A stretch of DNA of 10,976 nt from a virus. Shown piece after piece: positions 2,596-10,896 of this stretch. The translations under genes and the position numbers were made by a program. Each line of letters begins with the position of its first letter. Within the stretch, counting starts at the first letter, position 1. The stretch is taken from the UHGV virus genome UHGV-0119342. One strand, written 5' to 3'. The notes beneath the pieces were generated by a model, which was given only the letters and a program-made list of their open reading frames with translations, made no database searches and had not been told where the DNA came from.

Positions 2596-4662
2596 TTATT
2601 CCTCTGGGTAAGCGGAGCTAATCAAGGTATCTTCCTGCATACGATTAATATGCGATGTGGTTCTTTCATCAATAACCTTTCCATCAAGTACCGTCTGAGT
2701 TGTGATATTGATTGTCTGAGGCTGAATATTTACTGACGGCTTGATAACCTTTAAATCTTGTGTGAATGTTTCCACTCGACCTTTCAGATTATTTAATGCT
2801 TCAGGTGAAAACTGTGGAACATCTTTTGATTTGCCATGAACCATAGCCCATAAAACAGCAGCTAAAGAGTTCATGTCACCAGTCAATGCTTGGTCTGTGG
2901 GTTCCACCTTTGACCTTACAACTTTGTCAATTGGATTATCTGACTTACTCATCTGACGTTCATAGAACGGTTTAACAATGGAGTTAATCACATCAGTTGC
3001 CATACCGACAATCATTACTTTGGTAATTGCATCAGCTACAGATAATTTTCCTTTACCACCTTCAACACTACCGGAACGTGAATTAATTCTTCCCGCTGCT
3101 GTATTTGCTACATTTCCAAGCATGGAAATAGCCCTAATTAAGTTCCAGATACCACCTACAGCACCAATACCAGACCTTACAGCGACAATACCAGCAAGTC
3201 CCTTTAATGCACTTAACAGGCCATTTGCGATACCATCAGCTACAGCTTTTTGAGTGTCATTTAATTCTCTGTAAGCAAGGGTCACTCTGTCAAAGAATCC
3301 CTGCACTCGGTAGCTAATCGTGGTTAAATCATCAATACCGTTTGACATGCTTTTCATCAGGTCGCCAAAATGTTCACCAAGATTTTTAGATTGACCACCT
3401 AGTGAATTAAGTAAATTAGTCAGTGACCTTGTAAAGTCTGTTAAACCTTCCTGTGAACCGTCGAACATTAAGGCCAGATTATTATTCCATGAATTAGAAA
3501 GGCGGCCTAACTGCGTCTGAGTAGAGTTAATAATCTTTTCCCATCCACCAGCTTTATCAATCATCCTTCCCATTTCAGCGGATACTTTAGGAAGAACATC
3601 TTTAGAAAGAACTTTACCGTTCTTCATAGCTGCATCTAATTGCTCGGTAGTCATCCCAAGGCTTCTGGCAAATAACTGGAAAGCACCTGCCATTCTGTCA
3701 CCTAATTGACCACGTAGCTCTTCAGCCTGAATCTTCCCTTTAGAAGCCATCTGCTCGAAAGCTTTCAGAATCCCGTTAATTTCATCAGTGCTTAAACCCA
3801 TTAGTCGGGATGTACCAATCACATTAGAAAATAAGGATTCTTTCTGGTCTGCATTCATATCACCAGCACCAGCGGAAAACTTAGCAAAGCTACTTAATGT
3901 TTCAATCTGGTCTACACCTGTATTATTAGCAAGATTCTTAACGAAGTCTGTAGCTCGTTTAGCGCCTTCATCGCCTAATACAAATTGTGCCGCTCGTTGT
4001 GATGCTTCTTTTTTCAGACCAATCTCCATAATCTTCCTATAAGCTTCTAAGGCTGTCTGAAAACTATAAATGGCTGTACCTGCTTTGATTGCACTTGTAG
4101 CTAATACATCTAAACCATTTGAAGCATTTTCACTGTGATTGTTTTTGCTGGTGGTCTTATTAAACTTAGAAAGTGTTTCACGTAGATTTTGATTTAACTT
4201 TGCTAACTCACGATTAAAAGCTTCGTTCCCAAGTGTCTTGGATTTACCGCTTAAGCTGTAATACTGGCTTCTAAAATACTTCTCAAGTAGAGGATTAAAG
4301 TCACGAAGCTTGCTCATATTCACGCTATGCGCTGCTGTGATTGCTCTGTTGCCGCTAATTCGTGGTTGCCTTGCTGCTTTAACAGTTTCTTCAACCTGAG
4401 TTTTGAACTTAAAGACCTTCGTAGATTTGGCTCTTTCCTCCAGCTTATTAAAAGTCTGGTTAATCTTCTTTTCCATATTCCCCAAAGAGGCTGTTAAATC
4501 CTTATCCATGCTCTTTGGGTTAACTTTAAATGCTCTATTCAAATTGCGTTCAATTCTTTGTGCTGACTGCAAAGCTGCCTTTTCAACTCTTTGCAGTCCC
4601 TTAATAACGTTTTCATTGAAGCCTAGCTCAACGATAAAACTATCAACTGTGAATTTGCTCAT
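2596..4662 (-). CDS. Phage tail tape measure protein
   Basis: 688-aa ORF. Coiled-coil-like N-terminal region, central segment resembling the conserved tape-measure domain (GKIQAEELRGQLGDRMAGAFQLFARSLGMTTEQLDAAMKNGKV), Gly-rich hydrophobic segments near the C-terminus. AGAGGTG 10 nt upstream of ATG. Confidence 0.8.
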   Translation of the reverse strand: MSKFTVDSFIVELGFNENVIKGLQRVEKAALQSAQRIERNLNRAFKVNPKSMDKDLTASLGNMEKKINQTFNKLEERAKSTKVFKFKTQVEETVKAARQPRISGNRAITAAHSVNMSKLRDFNPLLEKYFRSQYYSLSGKSKTLGNEAFNRELAKLNQNLRETLSKFNKTTSKNNHSENASNGLDVLATSAIKAGTAIYSFQTALEAYRKIMEIGLKKEASQRAAQFVLGDEGAKRATDFVKNLANNTGVDQIETLSSFAKFSAGAGDMNADQKESLFSNVIGTSRLMGLSTDEINGILKAFEQMASKGKIQAEELRGQLGDRMAGAFQLFARSLGMTTEQLDAAMKNGKVLSKDVLPKVSAEMGRMIDKAGGWEKIINSTQTQLGRLSNSWNNNLALMFDGSQEGLTDFTRSLTNLLNSLGGQSKNLGEHFGDLMKSMSNGIDDLTTISYRVQGFFDRVTLAYRELNDTQKAVADGIANGLLSALKGLAGIVAVRSGIGAVGGIWNLIRAISMLGNVANTAAGRINSRSGSVEGGKGKLSVADAITKVMIVGMATDVINSIVKPFYERQMSKSDNPIDKVVRSKVEPTDQALTGDMNSLAAVLWAMVHGKSKDVPQFSPEALNNLKGRVETFTQDLKVIKPSVNIQPQTINITTQTVLDGKVIDERTTSHINRMQEDTLISSAYPEE

Positions 4663-6155: not shown

Positions 6156-6184
6156 ATTATGTCATACTTAAGGTTATTTGTCAA
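6156..6184 (-). promoter_or_regulatory. Candidate sigma70-type promoter (minus strand) for the 234-aa / 71-aa genes
   Basis: Minus-strand -35 TTGACA (6179-6184), 17-bp spacer, -10 CATAAT (6156-6161); implies a leader of about 330 nt. Confidence 0.4.
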
Positions 6185-6462
6185 CAGCCTTTTAACAGAT
6201 TGGTAACATCAATTTCTATTTACTGTGTTGCCTACCCAGCAACCAACAAATAAGCCAAGCAACGTCCAAGCAATTATTAAGCCCATTAGTGAACCCTCAC
6301 AGAATCCGTAACCAAAATATTGTCGCCGTACAGGATTGTCACAGCACCTTTCAAAAATTGCTCTGGGGAAATACTGTATTTGTTCGTTTGCTCGATAACC
6401 AATCTTTTCATGTCGCTGTCTGCAATTGGTAGCATCATTCGAGGCTCGTTAAACTCCACCGA

Positions 6463-6764: not shown

Positions 6765-7052
6765 CTAATTTCTCTTAAAGTCTCGGACTTGCATAAGATT
6801 TTTTGGTCTGGTATCGGCTCTGTTACCATTTCGATGGATAATTTGCTTATTGGATTGATAGCCATGATAAAGGAACCAGACAACATATTTCACGTAGAAA
6901 GTATATCGGCCTATATTAAATGTTTTGTTGCCGTAGTCGTCGGTATTTATCGTGACTGACTCTCCATCAGACCAGCACAGGGAATCACTGGATTCATCAT
7001 AGATAAGGTGTTCTGTAAAATATCGTCTAACATCTTCATGCCAAGGTTTCAT
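6765..7052 (-). CDS. Truncated HNH-like protein, paralogue of the N-terminal part of the 9540-10064 endonuclease
   Basis: 95-aa ORF, GAGGAGG 4 nt upstream of ATG. Shares KPWHEDVRRY with KAWPEEVIRY and VVWFLYHG...IIHRNGNRADTRPKNL with VIFYLYHG...IDHIDGDPLNNAISNL, but ends before the final HNH Asn and has no AP2 domain. Confidence 0.65.
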   Translation of the reverse strand: MKPWHEDVRRYFTEHLIYDESSDSLCWSDGESVTINTDDYGNKTFNIGRYTFYVKYVVWFLYHGYQSNKQIIHRNGNRADTRPKNLMQVRDFKRN

Positions 7053-7264: not shown

Positions 7265-7542
7265 TAAACCTCCAGAGACAGCTTGTGAATTTTAAGACTC
7301 AATAGACGGGCAATATCAATCTTAAAGCCGTTAAGCGCCTTCAAAGTAGCTAAAGCGTCCTGACTAATTCGGATGTGTTTACGACCTTTAGAGACTGGAT
7401 ATTTCAGTAAATCCGACTCAGTAACCTCTTTAGCAATTGCAAGCTGCATAACAGTTTGATGAGGGAGGTTAGTTGTCTGTTTAATTCGGGTAAGCTCGTG
7501 AAAGGCTTCTTCTGAAATACGGGTCAAAGTGTGTTTCTTCAT
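7264..7542 (-). CDS. Ribbon-helix-helix (CopG/Arc-like) DNA-binding protein, putative regulator
   Basis: 92-aa ORF, AGAGGA 8 nt upstream of ATG. N-terminus MKKHTLTRISEEAFHELTRIKQTTNLPHQTVMQLAIAKEV fits the RHH strand-helix-helix pattern; a second similar segment (HIRISQDALATLKAL...) may be a tandem repeat. Confidence 0.55.
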   Translation of the reverse strand: MKKHTLTRISEEAFHELTRIKQTTNLPHQTVMQLAIAKEVTESDLLKYPVSKGRKHIRISQDALATLKALNGFKIDIARLLSLKIHKLSLEV

Positions 7543-8100
7543 TTAAAATTCCTCTGTAACTAAATACGGGTCAAACTCAAAGTCTGGTTGCTCGTTTTCC
7601 ATTGGCTCAATATTTCCAACGGCAATATGATGCTCAACAACACCAATTAACTTTGCGCACATTACAGCAAGCAATGCACAATATTTATCGCTTGGTAATT
7701 CGTAGCTAAGTCTGGTTGCTTGTCGCTGAAGATGATTTGTCACGGTGGCTGAGTTAATTTCATCAAGGTTCTTTAGGAGATAAAATAGCTTCTTGTTGTA
7801 TTTCGGGTGACCTTCACCTCTACAGAATCCAATGAAAATATCATCAAGCTTACTTGGTAATTGTTCGTAGCTGTCAAAGTTAGCCAGATAATTTTTGATG
7901 CTGTTCTTTGTTGTTTTGCGTACTGACATATAACGACTCCTCGGTGTAATTGCCCGAATTACTTCGTCAATGCCTTTGCGCTCTGCTCTGGTGAACTTGG
8001 GTACTTCGTGACTGGTGGGGGAGTTTGTGTAAGCGTAGGAGTTGTGCTTGTTGCGTTCTCTTGATGCCTGAAGCATCGCTCTAAATTCTCTGTCGTTCAT
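7543..8100 (-). CDS. Hypothetical protein, first gene of the leftward operon
   Basis: 185-aa ORF, GAGGG 11 nt upstream of ATG; stop codon directly abuts the next start (TAAATG). Acidic/aromatic C-terminal tail (DFEFDPYLVTEEF). No recognisable domain. Confidence 0.6.
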   Translation of the reverse strand: MNDREFRAMLQASRERNKHNSYAYTNSPTSHEVPKFTRAERKGIDEVIRAITPRSRYMSVRKTTKNSIKNYLANFDSYEQLPSKLDDIFIGFCRGEGHPKYNKKLFYLLKNLDEINSATVTNHLQRQATRLSYELPSDKYCALLAVMCAKLIGVVEHHIAVGNIEPMENEQPDFEFDPYLVTEEF

Positions 8101-8151
8101 TCATGTTCTGACCCTCATAAGATGTTATTATTCTGTTAACTTATATATACA

Positions 8152-8180
8152 ATCTTAGCAGTTTCAAAGACTAATGTCAA
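8152..8180 (-). promoter_or_regulatory. Candidate sigma70-type promoter for the leftward operon
   Basis: Minus-strand -35 TTGACA (8175-8180), 17-bp spacer, -10 TAAGAT (8152-8157); back-to-back with the plus-strand promoter. Confidence 0.3.
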
Positions 8181-8187
8181 GCATTTT

Positions 8188-8217
8188 TTAACATTTCATT
8201 AACATCTGTGGTATAAT
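8188..8217 (+). promoter_or_regulatory. Candidate strong sigma70-type promoter with extended -10
   Basis: -35 TTAACA (8188-8193), 18-bp spacer, TGg + TATAAT (8209-8217); points toward the small ORF at 8348. Confidence 0.5.
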
Positions 8218-8347
8218 GGTTTTATGAGAGAGGGAAAATATAAAGGCGTGGCTATGAGGTTTATTCGATAGGGGTTGGTACAAGCCCAACTAACCGAATC
8301 AACTATGTATTTGGTCACATGGTATTGCATTGCACACAGGAAATTTA

Positions 8348-8524
8348 ATGGTAAATCTCCCTCCTGAGCTGGGGTCACCTGATGTATGGGCTGGTGGAGG
8401 TGTTGGGCTGATTGCAGGCCTGCTACTTCGCTATGTCCTCGTCAGAGTGCTTGTTGTCTTTAAACTGTTCGGTCGTACATGGACGCTTGACCTTAAGGAT
8501 AATGACCACACAGACCCCCGTTAA
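8348..8524 (+). CDS. Small single-pass membrane protein (58 aa from the ATG; the ORF track begins at a TTG at 8330)
   Basis: AGGA 6 nt upstream of the ATG at 8348; hydrophobic segment WAGGGVGLIAGLLLRYVLVRVLVV; locally GC-richer than its surroundings. Confidence 0.45.
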   Translation: MVNLPPELGSPDVWAGGGVGLIAGLLLRYVLVRVLVVFKLFGRTWTLDLKDNDHTDPR

Positions 8525-8538
8525 ACTCCCTCCAAAAC

Positions 8539-8570
8539 CCCCTGTACGAGATAGTATAGGGGTGTCTTTA
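8539..8570 (+). terminator. Candidate terminator after the small membrane-protein ORF
   Basis: Imperfect 8-bp stem cccctgta / tatagggg (one mismatch), 8-nt loop, followed by tgtcttta. Confidence 0.3.
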
Positions 8571-9453
8571 GCATTTTGTGCTATCTATTAAAAAATAGCT
8601 TGACAGAACAGGAAAGCTGTATCTATCAAGTATTCACCTCTCTGACAGTAATTTCTAAAAGTTCTTATTTTTCAATAAGTTGTAATTAGCCAATATATAA
8701 GGCTGTCCAGTACCTTCACAGAAAAACTTCAGAAGCCTTCTTAATCAATCCACTAAGCGAGAGAGAGCGATAACCCCAGAGAGGGAAGCTCCCTTCTTAA
8801 AAACCTTCTTGACAATCTTTACAGGCCTTGTTCAAGGTAATCGCAATAGTTTTTCTTCCCTCGGTTTCCCGTGTTCCTCGGTTTGCCTATTGAGGTTTGA
8901 AAGACCTCTGTAACTTCCCTCTTAGACAGGGAAGAATAATATTGGTGACACAAGCGAAGCGCCCCTCTAAAAAGATTTTTTAGCTATTTTGTTTAAAAGC
9001 ACATCAAACGATACATTTTATTGATTTAGGTCAAAGACAAAAGCATTGACAAAATGGTAAGATTGTTCACATGACCTTACTTAACAGATTCTTAAGAGCT
9101 TTGAAGCGGCCTATTTAACAAGGTCACTACCTCTGGTCTTATCGTTCCCTCTCTTCTTGGTAGTTCTGTTAAGTATCTTTTCAGGTATCTCTTACAGTCA
9201 CTGTTAAGATGATACTCTCCCTTCGGGTTATATCGTTACTTTCTCTCCCGTTAAACACTCCTTCCTAACTATCTACATAATCACTTCTAAGAATCTTACA
9301 AGGTAATATCCAGACCTCTTATAGCTGACCTGATACAGAAACATTACAGGCATACTCTCTAGGTTCTGTGTAGTTCCCTTGGTGGGAATAGATGCTCCTA
9401 CAATAAGAGCATCATTAATCTATATAGTCCTCTTCCGAGAACTTAATAGTTTT

Positions 9454-9481
9454 TTGATGTACATCAATCATTATCTAAAAT
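9454..9481 (+). promoter_or_regulatory. Candidate promoter for the HNH endonuclease gene
   Basis: -35 TTGATG (9454-9459), 16-bp spacer, -10 TAAAAT (9476-9481). Confidence 0.3.
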
Positions 9482-9539
9482 ATGATATGAAGTTTCTTGG
9501 TAGTATTACATCAACAAGTTAATTGAAATAAGGAATATT

Positions 9540-10064
9540 ATGGTGACTAGGTATACCAAGGCATGGCCTGAAGAAGTTATAAGATACATCAATGAAAATA
9601 TTACAGCAGATTTTGAATCTGGAACATTATTTAGAAATGGTGTAAAAATCGAGGGTTCACTTGTAAATCCTAAACCAAGACAATATCTGGCTTTTGGTTG
9701 TCGGATTAATGGTAAGTTCAGAATACTTAAGGTGCATCAGGTTATTTTCTATCTATATCATGGTAAACAAGCTAAACTATGGATTGACCATATAGATGGT
9801 GACCCGCTAAATAATGCTATTAGCAATCTTCGCGAGGTTACCAAAGAGCAGAATCAGGCAAACATGATACCCAGAAAGAAAACAAAATCAGGTTACAAGG
9901 GAGTACACCCAAGAGTGGATAACAAGGGGTTCTGGGCTACAATACGCTGTAATGGAAAATCTCATTATCTGGGTCAGTTTAATACAGCAGAAGAAGCTGC
10001 AAAAGCCTATGATGCTGCATCACTGGAATTGCATGGTAAATATGGACACAGGAATTTTAGCTGA
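9540..10064 (+). CDS. Free-standing homing endonuclease, NUMOD4-like N-terminus + HNH nuclease + AP2 DNA-binding domain
   Basis: 174-aa ORF, AAGGA 5 nt upstream of ATG. HNH motif VHQVIFYLYHG...IDHIDGDPLNNAISNLREVTKEQNQAN; AP2-like C-terminus YKGVHPRVDNKGFWATIRCNGKSHYLGQFNTAEEAAKAYDAAS. Confidence 0.85.
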   Translation: MVTRYTKAWPEEVIRYINENITADFESGTLFRNGVKIEGSLVNPKPRQYLAFGCRINGKFRILKVHQVIFYLYHGKQAKLWIDHIDGDPLNNAISNLREVTKEQNQANMIPRKKTKSGYKGVHPRVDNKGFWATIRCNGKSHYLGQFNTAEEAAKAYDAASLELHGKYGHRNFS

Positions 10065-10104: not shown

Positions 10105-10896
10105 ATTAAAGTTTATACAGTGATTTTTCATCTTCTAATTTTTTTATAAAAATCGTAGTACCCCCTCTACATTCCCCTTCACCGATAATCTTAAAAAATA
10201 TCTACACTCAATTGATGGCTGTTAAGTACCCCAGATTCACGATATAGCACCCCCTTTGCAAAAGCAGTTAAAATATCTATAACCAATTATTGACTTTCTT
10301 CATAGCATCTGTTTACCTCCACCTCAAAAAAACCTTCATCACATTTCACAGCATCTATCAAGAAGATTTAACCTATCAATAGCTGTAACATTTTATAGTC
10401 CTGTGAAGTCCTCCCCAGTTTTCTCTGTAACAGACACAAACTTCTGTGACCTTATGTGTCAATGACTTATAAGACATGCTCTCAAGGTGCTGTATAGCCT
10501 CTTATCTTCCAATACATAAAACTCTTATAAATCAGTACTGATATGTATACAGTTCGTTTTTAACATAATAGCTGTTTTACGCACTAAGAAGCATCTACGT
10601 AGATTCTGTATAGAGATTAAGATGTCTCTAAGTGATTTTTTAAGAGGAGATACGAAGGAACTATAACCATCACTTCATAACTTTCACGTAGGTAGCTATT
10701 AAGTAGGTTGATAGTCACTTTGAGGGAATATTGATAGTGACCAACTGCATAGACACCGTTATATAGCCCTGTATATAGCACTATATGTAGTGTCTGGAGA
10801 GGAACGACTAACACGATACAGTTTACCCTGAAAAGAGACTTCACAGATTCTCTATATATTTCAATAAGTTATGATAAAAAGAGACTATATCAATAC

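Follow-up and report, generated by a model that had tools for sequence, protein, structure and literature searches.

The window, by which we mean the whole stretch of 10,976 nucleotides that was analysed (UHGV virus genome UHGV-0119342), contains a pair of divergent promoters and a gene of 58 codons, both of which are genuine and conserved. The features of this region are listed below in the order of their positions in the window.

7543-8100, minus strand: gene of 185 aa, the first of the leftward unit, encoding an all-helical protein of no known family.
8123-8138, minus strand: left operator-like pair, TAACAGAATAATAACA, an exact match to the pattern TAACA-N6-TAACA.
8152-8180, minus strand: leftward promoter PL, with the -35 box TTGACA (8180-8175), a 17-nt spacer and the extended -10 box TGcTAAGAT (8160-8152).
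8188-8217, plus strand: rightward promoter PR, with the -35 box TTAACA (8188-8193), an 18-nt spacer and the extended -10 box TGgTATAAT (8209-8217).
8189-8204, plus strand: right operator-like pair, TAACATTTCATTAACA, also an exact pattern match.
8224-8347, plus strand: 5' leader of 124 nt, with a purine element AGAGAGGGAA (8227-8236), hairpin arms (8248-8255 and 8310-8318) and the Shine-Dalgarno sequence AGGA (8338-8341).
8348-8524, plus strand: ORF of 58 aa, predicted to encode an orphan single-helix membrane protein, with a CU-rich element (8356-8366) and a Chi site (8390-8397).
8525-8533, plus strand: CU-rich element ACTCCCTCC directly past the stop codon, a direct repeat (D8) of 8351-8364.
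8539-8585, plus strand: terminator-like hairpin CCCCTGTAC/GTATAGGGG (8539-8562, about -16 kcal/mol, with a broken T-tract) and a second small hairpin.

The window represents an 11.9-kb island that splits the gene yecE (about 11950-23823 in locus L001). In the strain WP9-S17-ESBL-11, an identical sequence is found within an 11.9-kb insert in yecE, which contains a large serine recombinase gene, a Dit-like "baseplate" gene, a tape-measure gene, two HNH endonuclease genes and several unknown genes. Annotation and a profile search of the island genes detected no capsid, terminase or lysis genes. The leftward operon ends with the tape-measure and Dit genes, both of which are Felix-O1-like: the Dit-like gene has about 74% DNA identity to Felix-O1-like phages, and the tape-measure protein is about 30% identical to its counterparts in these phages in a full-length alignment. 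These two are the only phage-like structural genes of a small integrated element that carries an integrase and lacks capsid and terminase genes, and the window looks like an undescribed phage satellite. We found no description of the island or of the 58-aa protein in the literature.

The region is present in 420 of 5426 complete E. coli genomes (about 8%), always on the chromosome and in at most four places per genome. Relatives of the island occupy other sites as well (tonB/yciI and ymdF), and are also found, with unchanged gene order, in E. albertii and Citrobacter; relatives of the 185-aa neighbour come, in addition, from Shigella, Salmonella and E. fergusonii. A megablast search of positions 7500-9600 against phage and plasmid collections gave no match. 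With the whole window as the query, megablast matched 16 phage records, mostly of Stx-converting phages, at 99% identity or more; these matches may lie in the yecE flank (about 1-53), since yecE is a known integration site of Stx phages. The HNH and HNH-AP2 endonuclease genes (6765-7052 and 9540-10064) are present or absent among the relatives (L010, L012 and L015), and in some relatives a gene for a Dam-like methyltransferase or a small serine recombinase replaces the endonuclease genes in the rightward region.

In a promoter scan of positions 7900-9700, PR on the plus strand (TTAACA-18-TATAAT, 8188-8217) matches the consensus at 11 of 12 positions with the TG correctly placed, and PL on the minus strand (TTGACA-17-TAAGAT, 8180-8152) matches it at 10 of 12, also with TG. 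Both have the form of a sigma-70 extended -10 promoter, that is, a TGnTATAAT-type -10 box with a -35 box at 16-18 nt. A pattern search places TGTCAA at 8175-8180, TTAACA at 8188-8193 and TGGTATAAT at 8209-8217, and the gap between the two -35 hexamers is exactly 7 bp. The first-pass annotation of this DNA had described two divergent promoters with -35 boxes 7 bp apart and a rightward extended -10 box TGgTATAAT, and each of these elements is confirmed at the positions just given. The whole window contains three promoters with at least 10 of 12 matches and TG (8188+, 8180- and 6184-), all of them intergenic, against an expected number of 0.31 in 300 dinucleotide shuffles; two or more such promoters occurred in 3.7% of the shuffles.

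We gathered 58 loci related to this region from E. coli genomes, IMG/VR, GTDB species genomes and metagenomes. The block 8120-8222, which contains both promoters, is nearly unchanged in 56 of them, Citrobacter included, and TGGTATAAT is found in almost all of these 56; in the remaining two loci the block is interrupted by an IS element or a contig end. From these observed sequences we infer that PL and PR are strong sigma-70 promoters that would fire in opposite directions. PL would drive the 185-aa gene (7543-8100), and probably also the long leftward operon.

Several other features were observed. The third strong promoter of the window (minus strand, within 6156-6208) reads TTGACA-17-CATAAT with TG and matches the consensus at 11 of 12 positions. 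A large imperfect dyad extends over 8103-8239, with its centre near 8171, and comprises CCCTCATAA with TTATGAGAGAGGG in addition to the TAACA pairs. As a result of this dyad, both divergent mRNAs bear an early GAGGG-type purine element. On the PR side it immediately follows the transcript start; on the PL side it is found about 30 nt into the transcript and is the 185-aa gene's Shine-Dalgarno sequence. An ATG is present 5-7 nt past the -10 box of PR in 55 of 56 loci (8224-8226 in the window), at or near the inferred transcription start, and the short frames opened by it show no conservation.

The promoters are bracketed by repeated boxes of the type TAACA-N6-TAACA. The left pair (8123-8138) lies downstream of PL, at about +7 to +22 relative to the inferred leftward transcription start, whereas the right pair (8189-8204) overlaps the -35 box and spacer of PR and is located 8 bp upstream of the -35 box of PL. 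The two pairs are in inverted orientation, and the left pair forms an inverted repeat with 8188-8207 (repeat I2); it is kept as TGTTAxT..CTGTTAAC in 56 loci. A third TAACA site, a triple repeat at 6182-6208, is located directly upstream of the promoter 6184- in the same layout as at PL (the stretch from 8175 reads TGTCAAGCATTTTTTAACATTTCATTAACAT, and that from 6179 reads TGTCAACAGCCTTTTAACAGATTGGTAACAT). All three TAACA sites thus adjoin the three strongest promoters of the window.

It appears from the sequence that the -35 box of PR doubles as an operator-like box, forming one half of a TAACA-N6-TAACA pair. In four loci this -35 box decays to GTAACA, which is a poorer -35 box, while TAACA stays; the retention of TAACA in these loci suggests that selection acts on the repeat. 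Counting against the operator idea, TTAACA is also simply a good -35 box. A putative TAACA-binding protein, encoded by a phage or by the island, probably sets the PL/PR switch. The product of the 185-aa gene has no match in Pfam, PHROGs, NCBIfam or PADLOC, and its AlphaFold model (pLDDT 46) is too poor for a fold search or for naming it as a candidate repressor. We tentatively regard the region as the central control switch of the phage-satellite-like island in yecE, and put this reading somewhat short of an even chance.

The TAACA pairs also occur in phage DNA. In the ORF-free DNA downstream of the 58-aa gene, a stretch of 50-60 nt at 9115-9167 has 84-90% identity to unannotated DNA of 13 Felixounavirus genomes, and in the phage ECP2307 the matching stretch is part of a 592-bp sequence of which each end of the genome carries an exact copy. 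Direct terminal repeats have been reported for Felixounavirus genomes (PMC11737134). In the phage HK3, the repeat region holds most of the 29 TTAACA boxes of that locus, of which 6 are expected by chance, and contains 19 TAACA-N6-TAACA pairs against an expectation of 0.8. Further blocks of the island match the phage repeat at 9079-9102 and 10245-10283, and longer blocks in other islands match it across its left edge. Since TAACA pairs fill the phage repeat, the operator-like boxes of the island would be a characteristic motif of the terminal repeat of the presumed helper. The sequences that may tie the island to a helper phage include the short matches to the terminal repeat and the shared TAACA pairs.

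The segment 8525-9540, about 1 kb without an ORF of at least 50 aa, is conserved across the island family. Homology to the 592-bp direct terminal repeat of Felixounavirus phages is seen in three blocks (9079-9102, 9115-9161 and 10245-10283), and such terminal-repeat-like DNA could be a packaging or replication signal. In addition, a 42-nt element at 8645-8686 is present in a single copy here and twice, 95 nt apart, in most relatives; in L014, for example, the copies are located at 3719-3760 and 3814-3855, with a TATATA box after each copy. By their sequence, these copies may be tandem promoters or binding sites.

The ORF at 8348-8524 is preceded by the Shine-Dalgarno sequence AGGA. Conservation in related elements, which the first-pass annotation had named in advance as a test of the ORF, is found in all 58 loci: the frame is open from the same ATG, with a length of 58-62 aa, and all of its indels (3, 6 and 12 nt) are in frame. 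The mean pairwise dN is 0.09 and dS is 0.44, giving a dN/dS of about 0.2; against the window copy, dN/dS ranges from 0.06 to 0.53. An overlapping ORF on the minus strand (8199-8378) was considered and rejected because the leaders of relatives carry indels of 52 and 98 nt.

A protein database search found 57 related clusters, all without a name, and in the RefSeq record of strain WP9-S17-ESBL-11 the 58-aa gene is unannotated. ORF profiles match no family in Pfam, PHROGs, NCBIfam or PADLOC, and tblastn found no homologue among 50,697 phage and 72,556 plasmid records. When 1.84 billion representative proteins were searched with a profile, 16 proteins came back, essentially all of the same family, and there were no distant relatives. 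By these searches, the 58-aa protein is an orphan tied to the island family.

The GC content is 51.4% in the ORF and 39.2% in the window as a whole; of all stretches of 177 nt in the window, the one with the highest GC falls on the ORF, and only 0.36% attain the value of the ORF itself. The first-pass annotation had noted this enrichment, which is borne out, and had taken it to suggest separate acquisition or constraint at the RNA level. One reading is accordingly that the ORF is a recently acquired foreign GC-rich gene, or an incidental frame in a non-coding RNA element, and the GC maximum and the low synonymous variation at the 5' end (see below) fit such an origin. However, the GC content by codon position is 71%, 39% and 44% for GC1, GC2 and GC3, respectively, and neighbouring genes have a GC3 of 29-43%, a range that the ORF exceeds slightly if at all. 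The excess is explained by codons for Gly, Val, Leu, Ala, Arg, Asp and Pro, that is, by amino-acid composition. Since the excess resides in the first codon positions, it reflects this composition and not foreign origin.

The ordinary GC3, together with the presence of the ORF as a core gene of every member of the island family, argues against separate acquisition, which we rejected. The low dN/dS, the in-frame indels and the lack of homologues in the phage and plasmid records also count against a foreign gene or an incidental frame. We consider this reading largely refuted and very improbable. As to constraint on the RNA, synonymous diversity in codons 1-20 is 0.127, about half of the 0.246 found elsewhere in the gene (p = 0.017, although the sequences are not independent). 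This low diversity could also come from recombination or from the Chi site, which covers codons 15-17 within the low-diversity stretch. The window contains three such Chi sites, GCTGGTGG, against 0.15 expected: 3545-3552 (minus strand), 4147-4154 (plus strand) and 8390-8397 (plus strand).

The membrane helix that had been proposed for the 58-aa product is supported by two predictions. The hydrophobic stretch has a Kyte-Doolittle maximum of 2.27 over 19 residues, and AlphaFold predicts a single helix spanning residues 11-51, with a pLDDT of about 90 for residues 21-40. Seven residues are invariant (G17, G18, G20, G24, R28, Y29 and R33), and G16, G20 and G24 form a GxxxGxxxG zipper, a motif that is common in membrane helices packing into oligomers or pores. 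The N-terminus is acidic, the C-terminal tail is charged, and the N-terminal segment, which is probably periplasmic, is strongly conserved. The product would enter the inner membrane as a single helix with its N-terminus out and its C-terminus in, and would self-associate via the G16xxxG20xxxG24 zipper.

On the basis of these features, the protein may permeabilise the membrane, acting as a toxin or holin-like effector. A parallel is LidI, a small membrane protein that collapses lysis inhibition and is encoded by the PLE satellites of Vibrio cholerae, whose helper is the virulent myovirus ICP1. The effector could likewise serve the island in conflict with a phage, by abortive infection or by changing the timing of lysis, or it could serve in maintenance of the island. 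We rank such an effector, kept at a low level of translation, first among the functional readings, as a tentative choice that falls below even odds. It is awkward for this reading that a strong toxin would stand behind a near-consensus promoter without a detectable antitoxin. The absence of a lysis cassette nearby makes a classical holin unlikely.

How translation would be kept low is suggested by the predicted folds of the mRNA. The leader is 124 nt long here, with a start near 8224 inferred at about 7 nt past the -10 box. The leader of about 120 nt described in the first-pass annotation is thus correct for the window copy, but it is not a trait of the family, in which the length ranges from 75 to 229 nt, depending on whether a leader contains a module of about 48-54 nt, another of about 98 nt, both or neither. 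The first of these variable insertions (about 8256-8309 in the window) occupies the loop of the leader hairpin. In the short conserved leader hairpin (GUGGCUAU/..GGUCAC), all changes in the stem preserve pairing, and every one of them is one-sided. RNAalifold applied to 13 short-leader variants kept only this short hairpin, with a covariation term of -0.14, and found no compensatory covariation for the mRNA fold.

When the leader is folded alone (12 variants), the 5' purine element (8227-8236 in the window) pairs with the CU-rich codons 3-6. When the full mRNA is folded (z-score -2.9 for the window copy), the purine element pairs instead with the CU-rich element past the stop codon (8525-8533), and the Shine-Dalgarno sequence pairs with early codons. 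Of the 51 unique variants folded, 39 are predicted to pair the 5' element with the post-stop element, and 44 have at least four bases of the Shine-Dalgarno region paired, mostly with early codons. Removal of the 3' end raises the probability that the Shine-Dalgarno sequence of the window copy is unpaired from 0.33 to 0.79 (family means, 0.56 and 0.68). In the model suggested by these folds, the full-length mRNA would fold its 5' purine element onto the post-stop CU-rich element, pairing of the Shine-Dalgarno sequence with the CU-rich codons 4-6 would keep translation low, and the ribosome-binding site would become accessible once the 3' end is lost. Note that GA-rich and CU-rich tracts pair promiscuously, which weakens this model. 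The earlier proposal of RNA-level constraint thus finds some support in the halved synonymous diversity of codons 1-20 and in the consistent folds, but none from covariation.

The predicted folds fit a translation throttle of the hok type, and a type I toxin-antitoxin-like addiction module that stabilises the island has to be weighed on the same data. Here, a membrane toxin would be made from a stable, folded mRNA that is activated by processing, and an unrecognised small RNA would neutralise it. In favour of such a module, the product is a peptide shorter than 65 aa with one predicted transmembrane helix, and its mRNA has a long, structured leader; the predicted 5'-3' fold-back of this mRNA, with a masked Shine-Dalgarno sequence, is reminiscent of hok. 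The gene is also located on a mobile element with at most four matching places per genome. On the other hand, no conserved opposite-strand promoter with at least 9 of 12 matches was found in or near the gene in 14 loci, where there are only weak, non-conserved matches. A search of the region against Rfam at a permissive threshold gave no match, no tRNA genes were found, and there is no match to Hok/Gef, Ldr, TisB, Ibs, ShoB or other toxin families. In a search for downstream RNA complementary to the 5' element, both types of CU-rich tract turned up in the same locus, and these complements do not co-vary cleanly with the element. Because no antisense RNA gene was found, this module is ranked third among the readings, and we consider it improbable.

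The terminator-like hairpin past the ORF is kept in most loci and is absent in L008 and L010. Among the other relatives, L012 has the hairpin (8539-8562 in the window) replaced by its exact reverse complement, and L006 and L013 carry a 17-nt insert in its loop. PR would thus yield a short, self-contained mRNA that consists of the leader, the single 58-aa gene and the hairpin.

Such a unit of one promoter, one ORF and one terminator also suits a non-toxic exclusion or immunity protein with moron-like expression. On this reading, PR would be active constitutively in the resident island, with the terminator of the unit providing insulation, and the membrane protein so produced would stop incoming phages or competing islands at DNA entry or at a membrane step while leaving the cell unharmed. 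A near-consensus promoter of the constitutive type is appropriate for a gene expressed while the island is otherwise silent, small bitopic membrane proteins are typical exclusion factors, and the strong conservation of the probably periplasmic N-terminal segment agrees with this role. Nevertheless, the gene is present in all 58 loci and so is no accessory insertion, and the predicted Shine-Dalgarno masking and 5'-3' fold-back would be unexpected with a harmless protein. The glycine zipper and the arginines of the helix suggest a pore or an oligomer, and there is no homology to known exclusion proteins in PHROGs or PADLOC. We rank an exclusion protein second and consider it unlikely, and keep the membrane-permeabilising effector as our preferred reading. 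Note that the functional candidates that had been listed at the outset, a holin-like or antiholin-like peptide, a toxin and an exclusion protein, cannot be distinguished by computation.

In a broader reading, the islands would form an undescribed family of satellites of virulent Felix-O1-like phages in E. coli, Shigella and Citrobacter, the promoter region would be a sensor of the helper, and the 58-aa protein would be a membrane effector of a new class. The pairs at PL and PR would be recognised by a phage protein whose usual targets are the TAACA pairs of the terminal repeat, and this binding would flip the switch. The effector would be restrained by the fold-back of its mRNA. We regard this combination as doubtful. 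To our knowledge, satellites of virulent phages are well studied only in V. cholerae (PLE and ICP1), and an E. coli counterpart, if the reading is true, would be an easily handled model. Such an island could show how satellites sense and fight a helper phage. Felix-O1-like phages are used against Salmonella and E. coli, and for this reason the island is relevant to phage therapy. The 58-aa protein in itself adds a well-supported member to the poorly annotated small membrane proteins, and the control region, which pairs a phage-repeat motif with an orphan membrane protein, would be of greater interest if the helper-sensing reading holds.

Finally, we compare the region with known systems. As in the morons of lambdoid prophages, the 58-aa gene is served by a sigma-70 promoter and a hairpin terminator of its own, and has a base composition unlike that of its neighbours. 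In contrast to morons, which are optional insertions, it is a constant core gene of the family, and the difference in composition is an effect of the amino acids encoded. With holins and antiholins the protein shares one transmembrane helix, a packing motif of the glycine-zipper type and a charged C-terminal tail; it differs in that there is no endolysin or spanin gene nearby and no match to a holin family, and in that the gene is located in a control region and not in a late or lysis block. The likeness to hok/sok consists of a short single-helix peptide, a long leader and a predicted pairing of the 5' and 3' ends with a masked ribosome-binding site, whereas an antisense RNA gene, toxin homology, an overlapping mok-like frame and covariation were not found here.

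The arrangement of the promoters resembles the stl-str region of SaPIs and the PRM/PR region of lambda, in which back-to-back promoters with flanking or overlapping repeated operator-like boxes are also placed between two transcription blocks. Unlike in these switches, there is no recognisable repressor gene here, and the repeated box, in which the two TAACA units are spaced by 11 bp, is the motif found throughout the terminal repeat of a virulent phage. In the case of LidI and the PLEs, the position of the gene in a control region and the architecture of its leader are not known features of LidI, and the helper of the present island is a presumed one. In both systems, an island in the chromosome, about 12-18 kb in length, encodes a small membrane protein together with a large serine integrase and has an apparent tie to a virulent myovirus.
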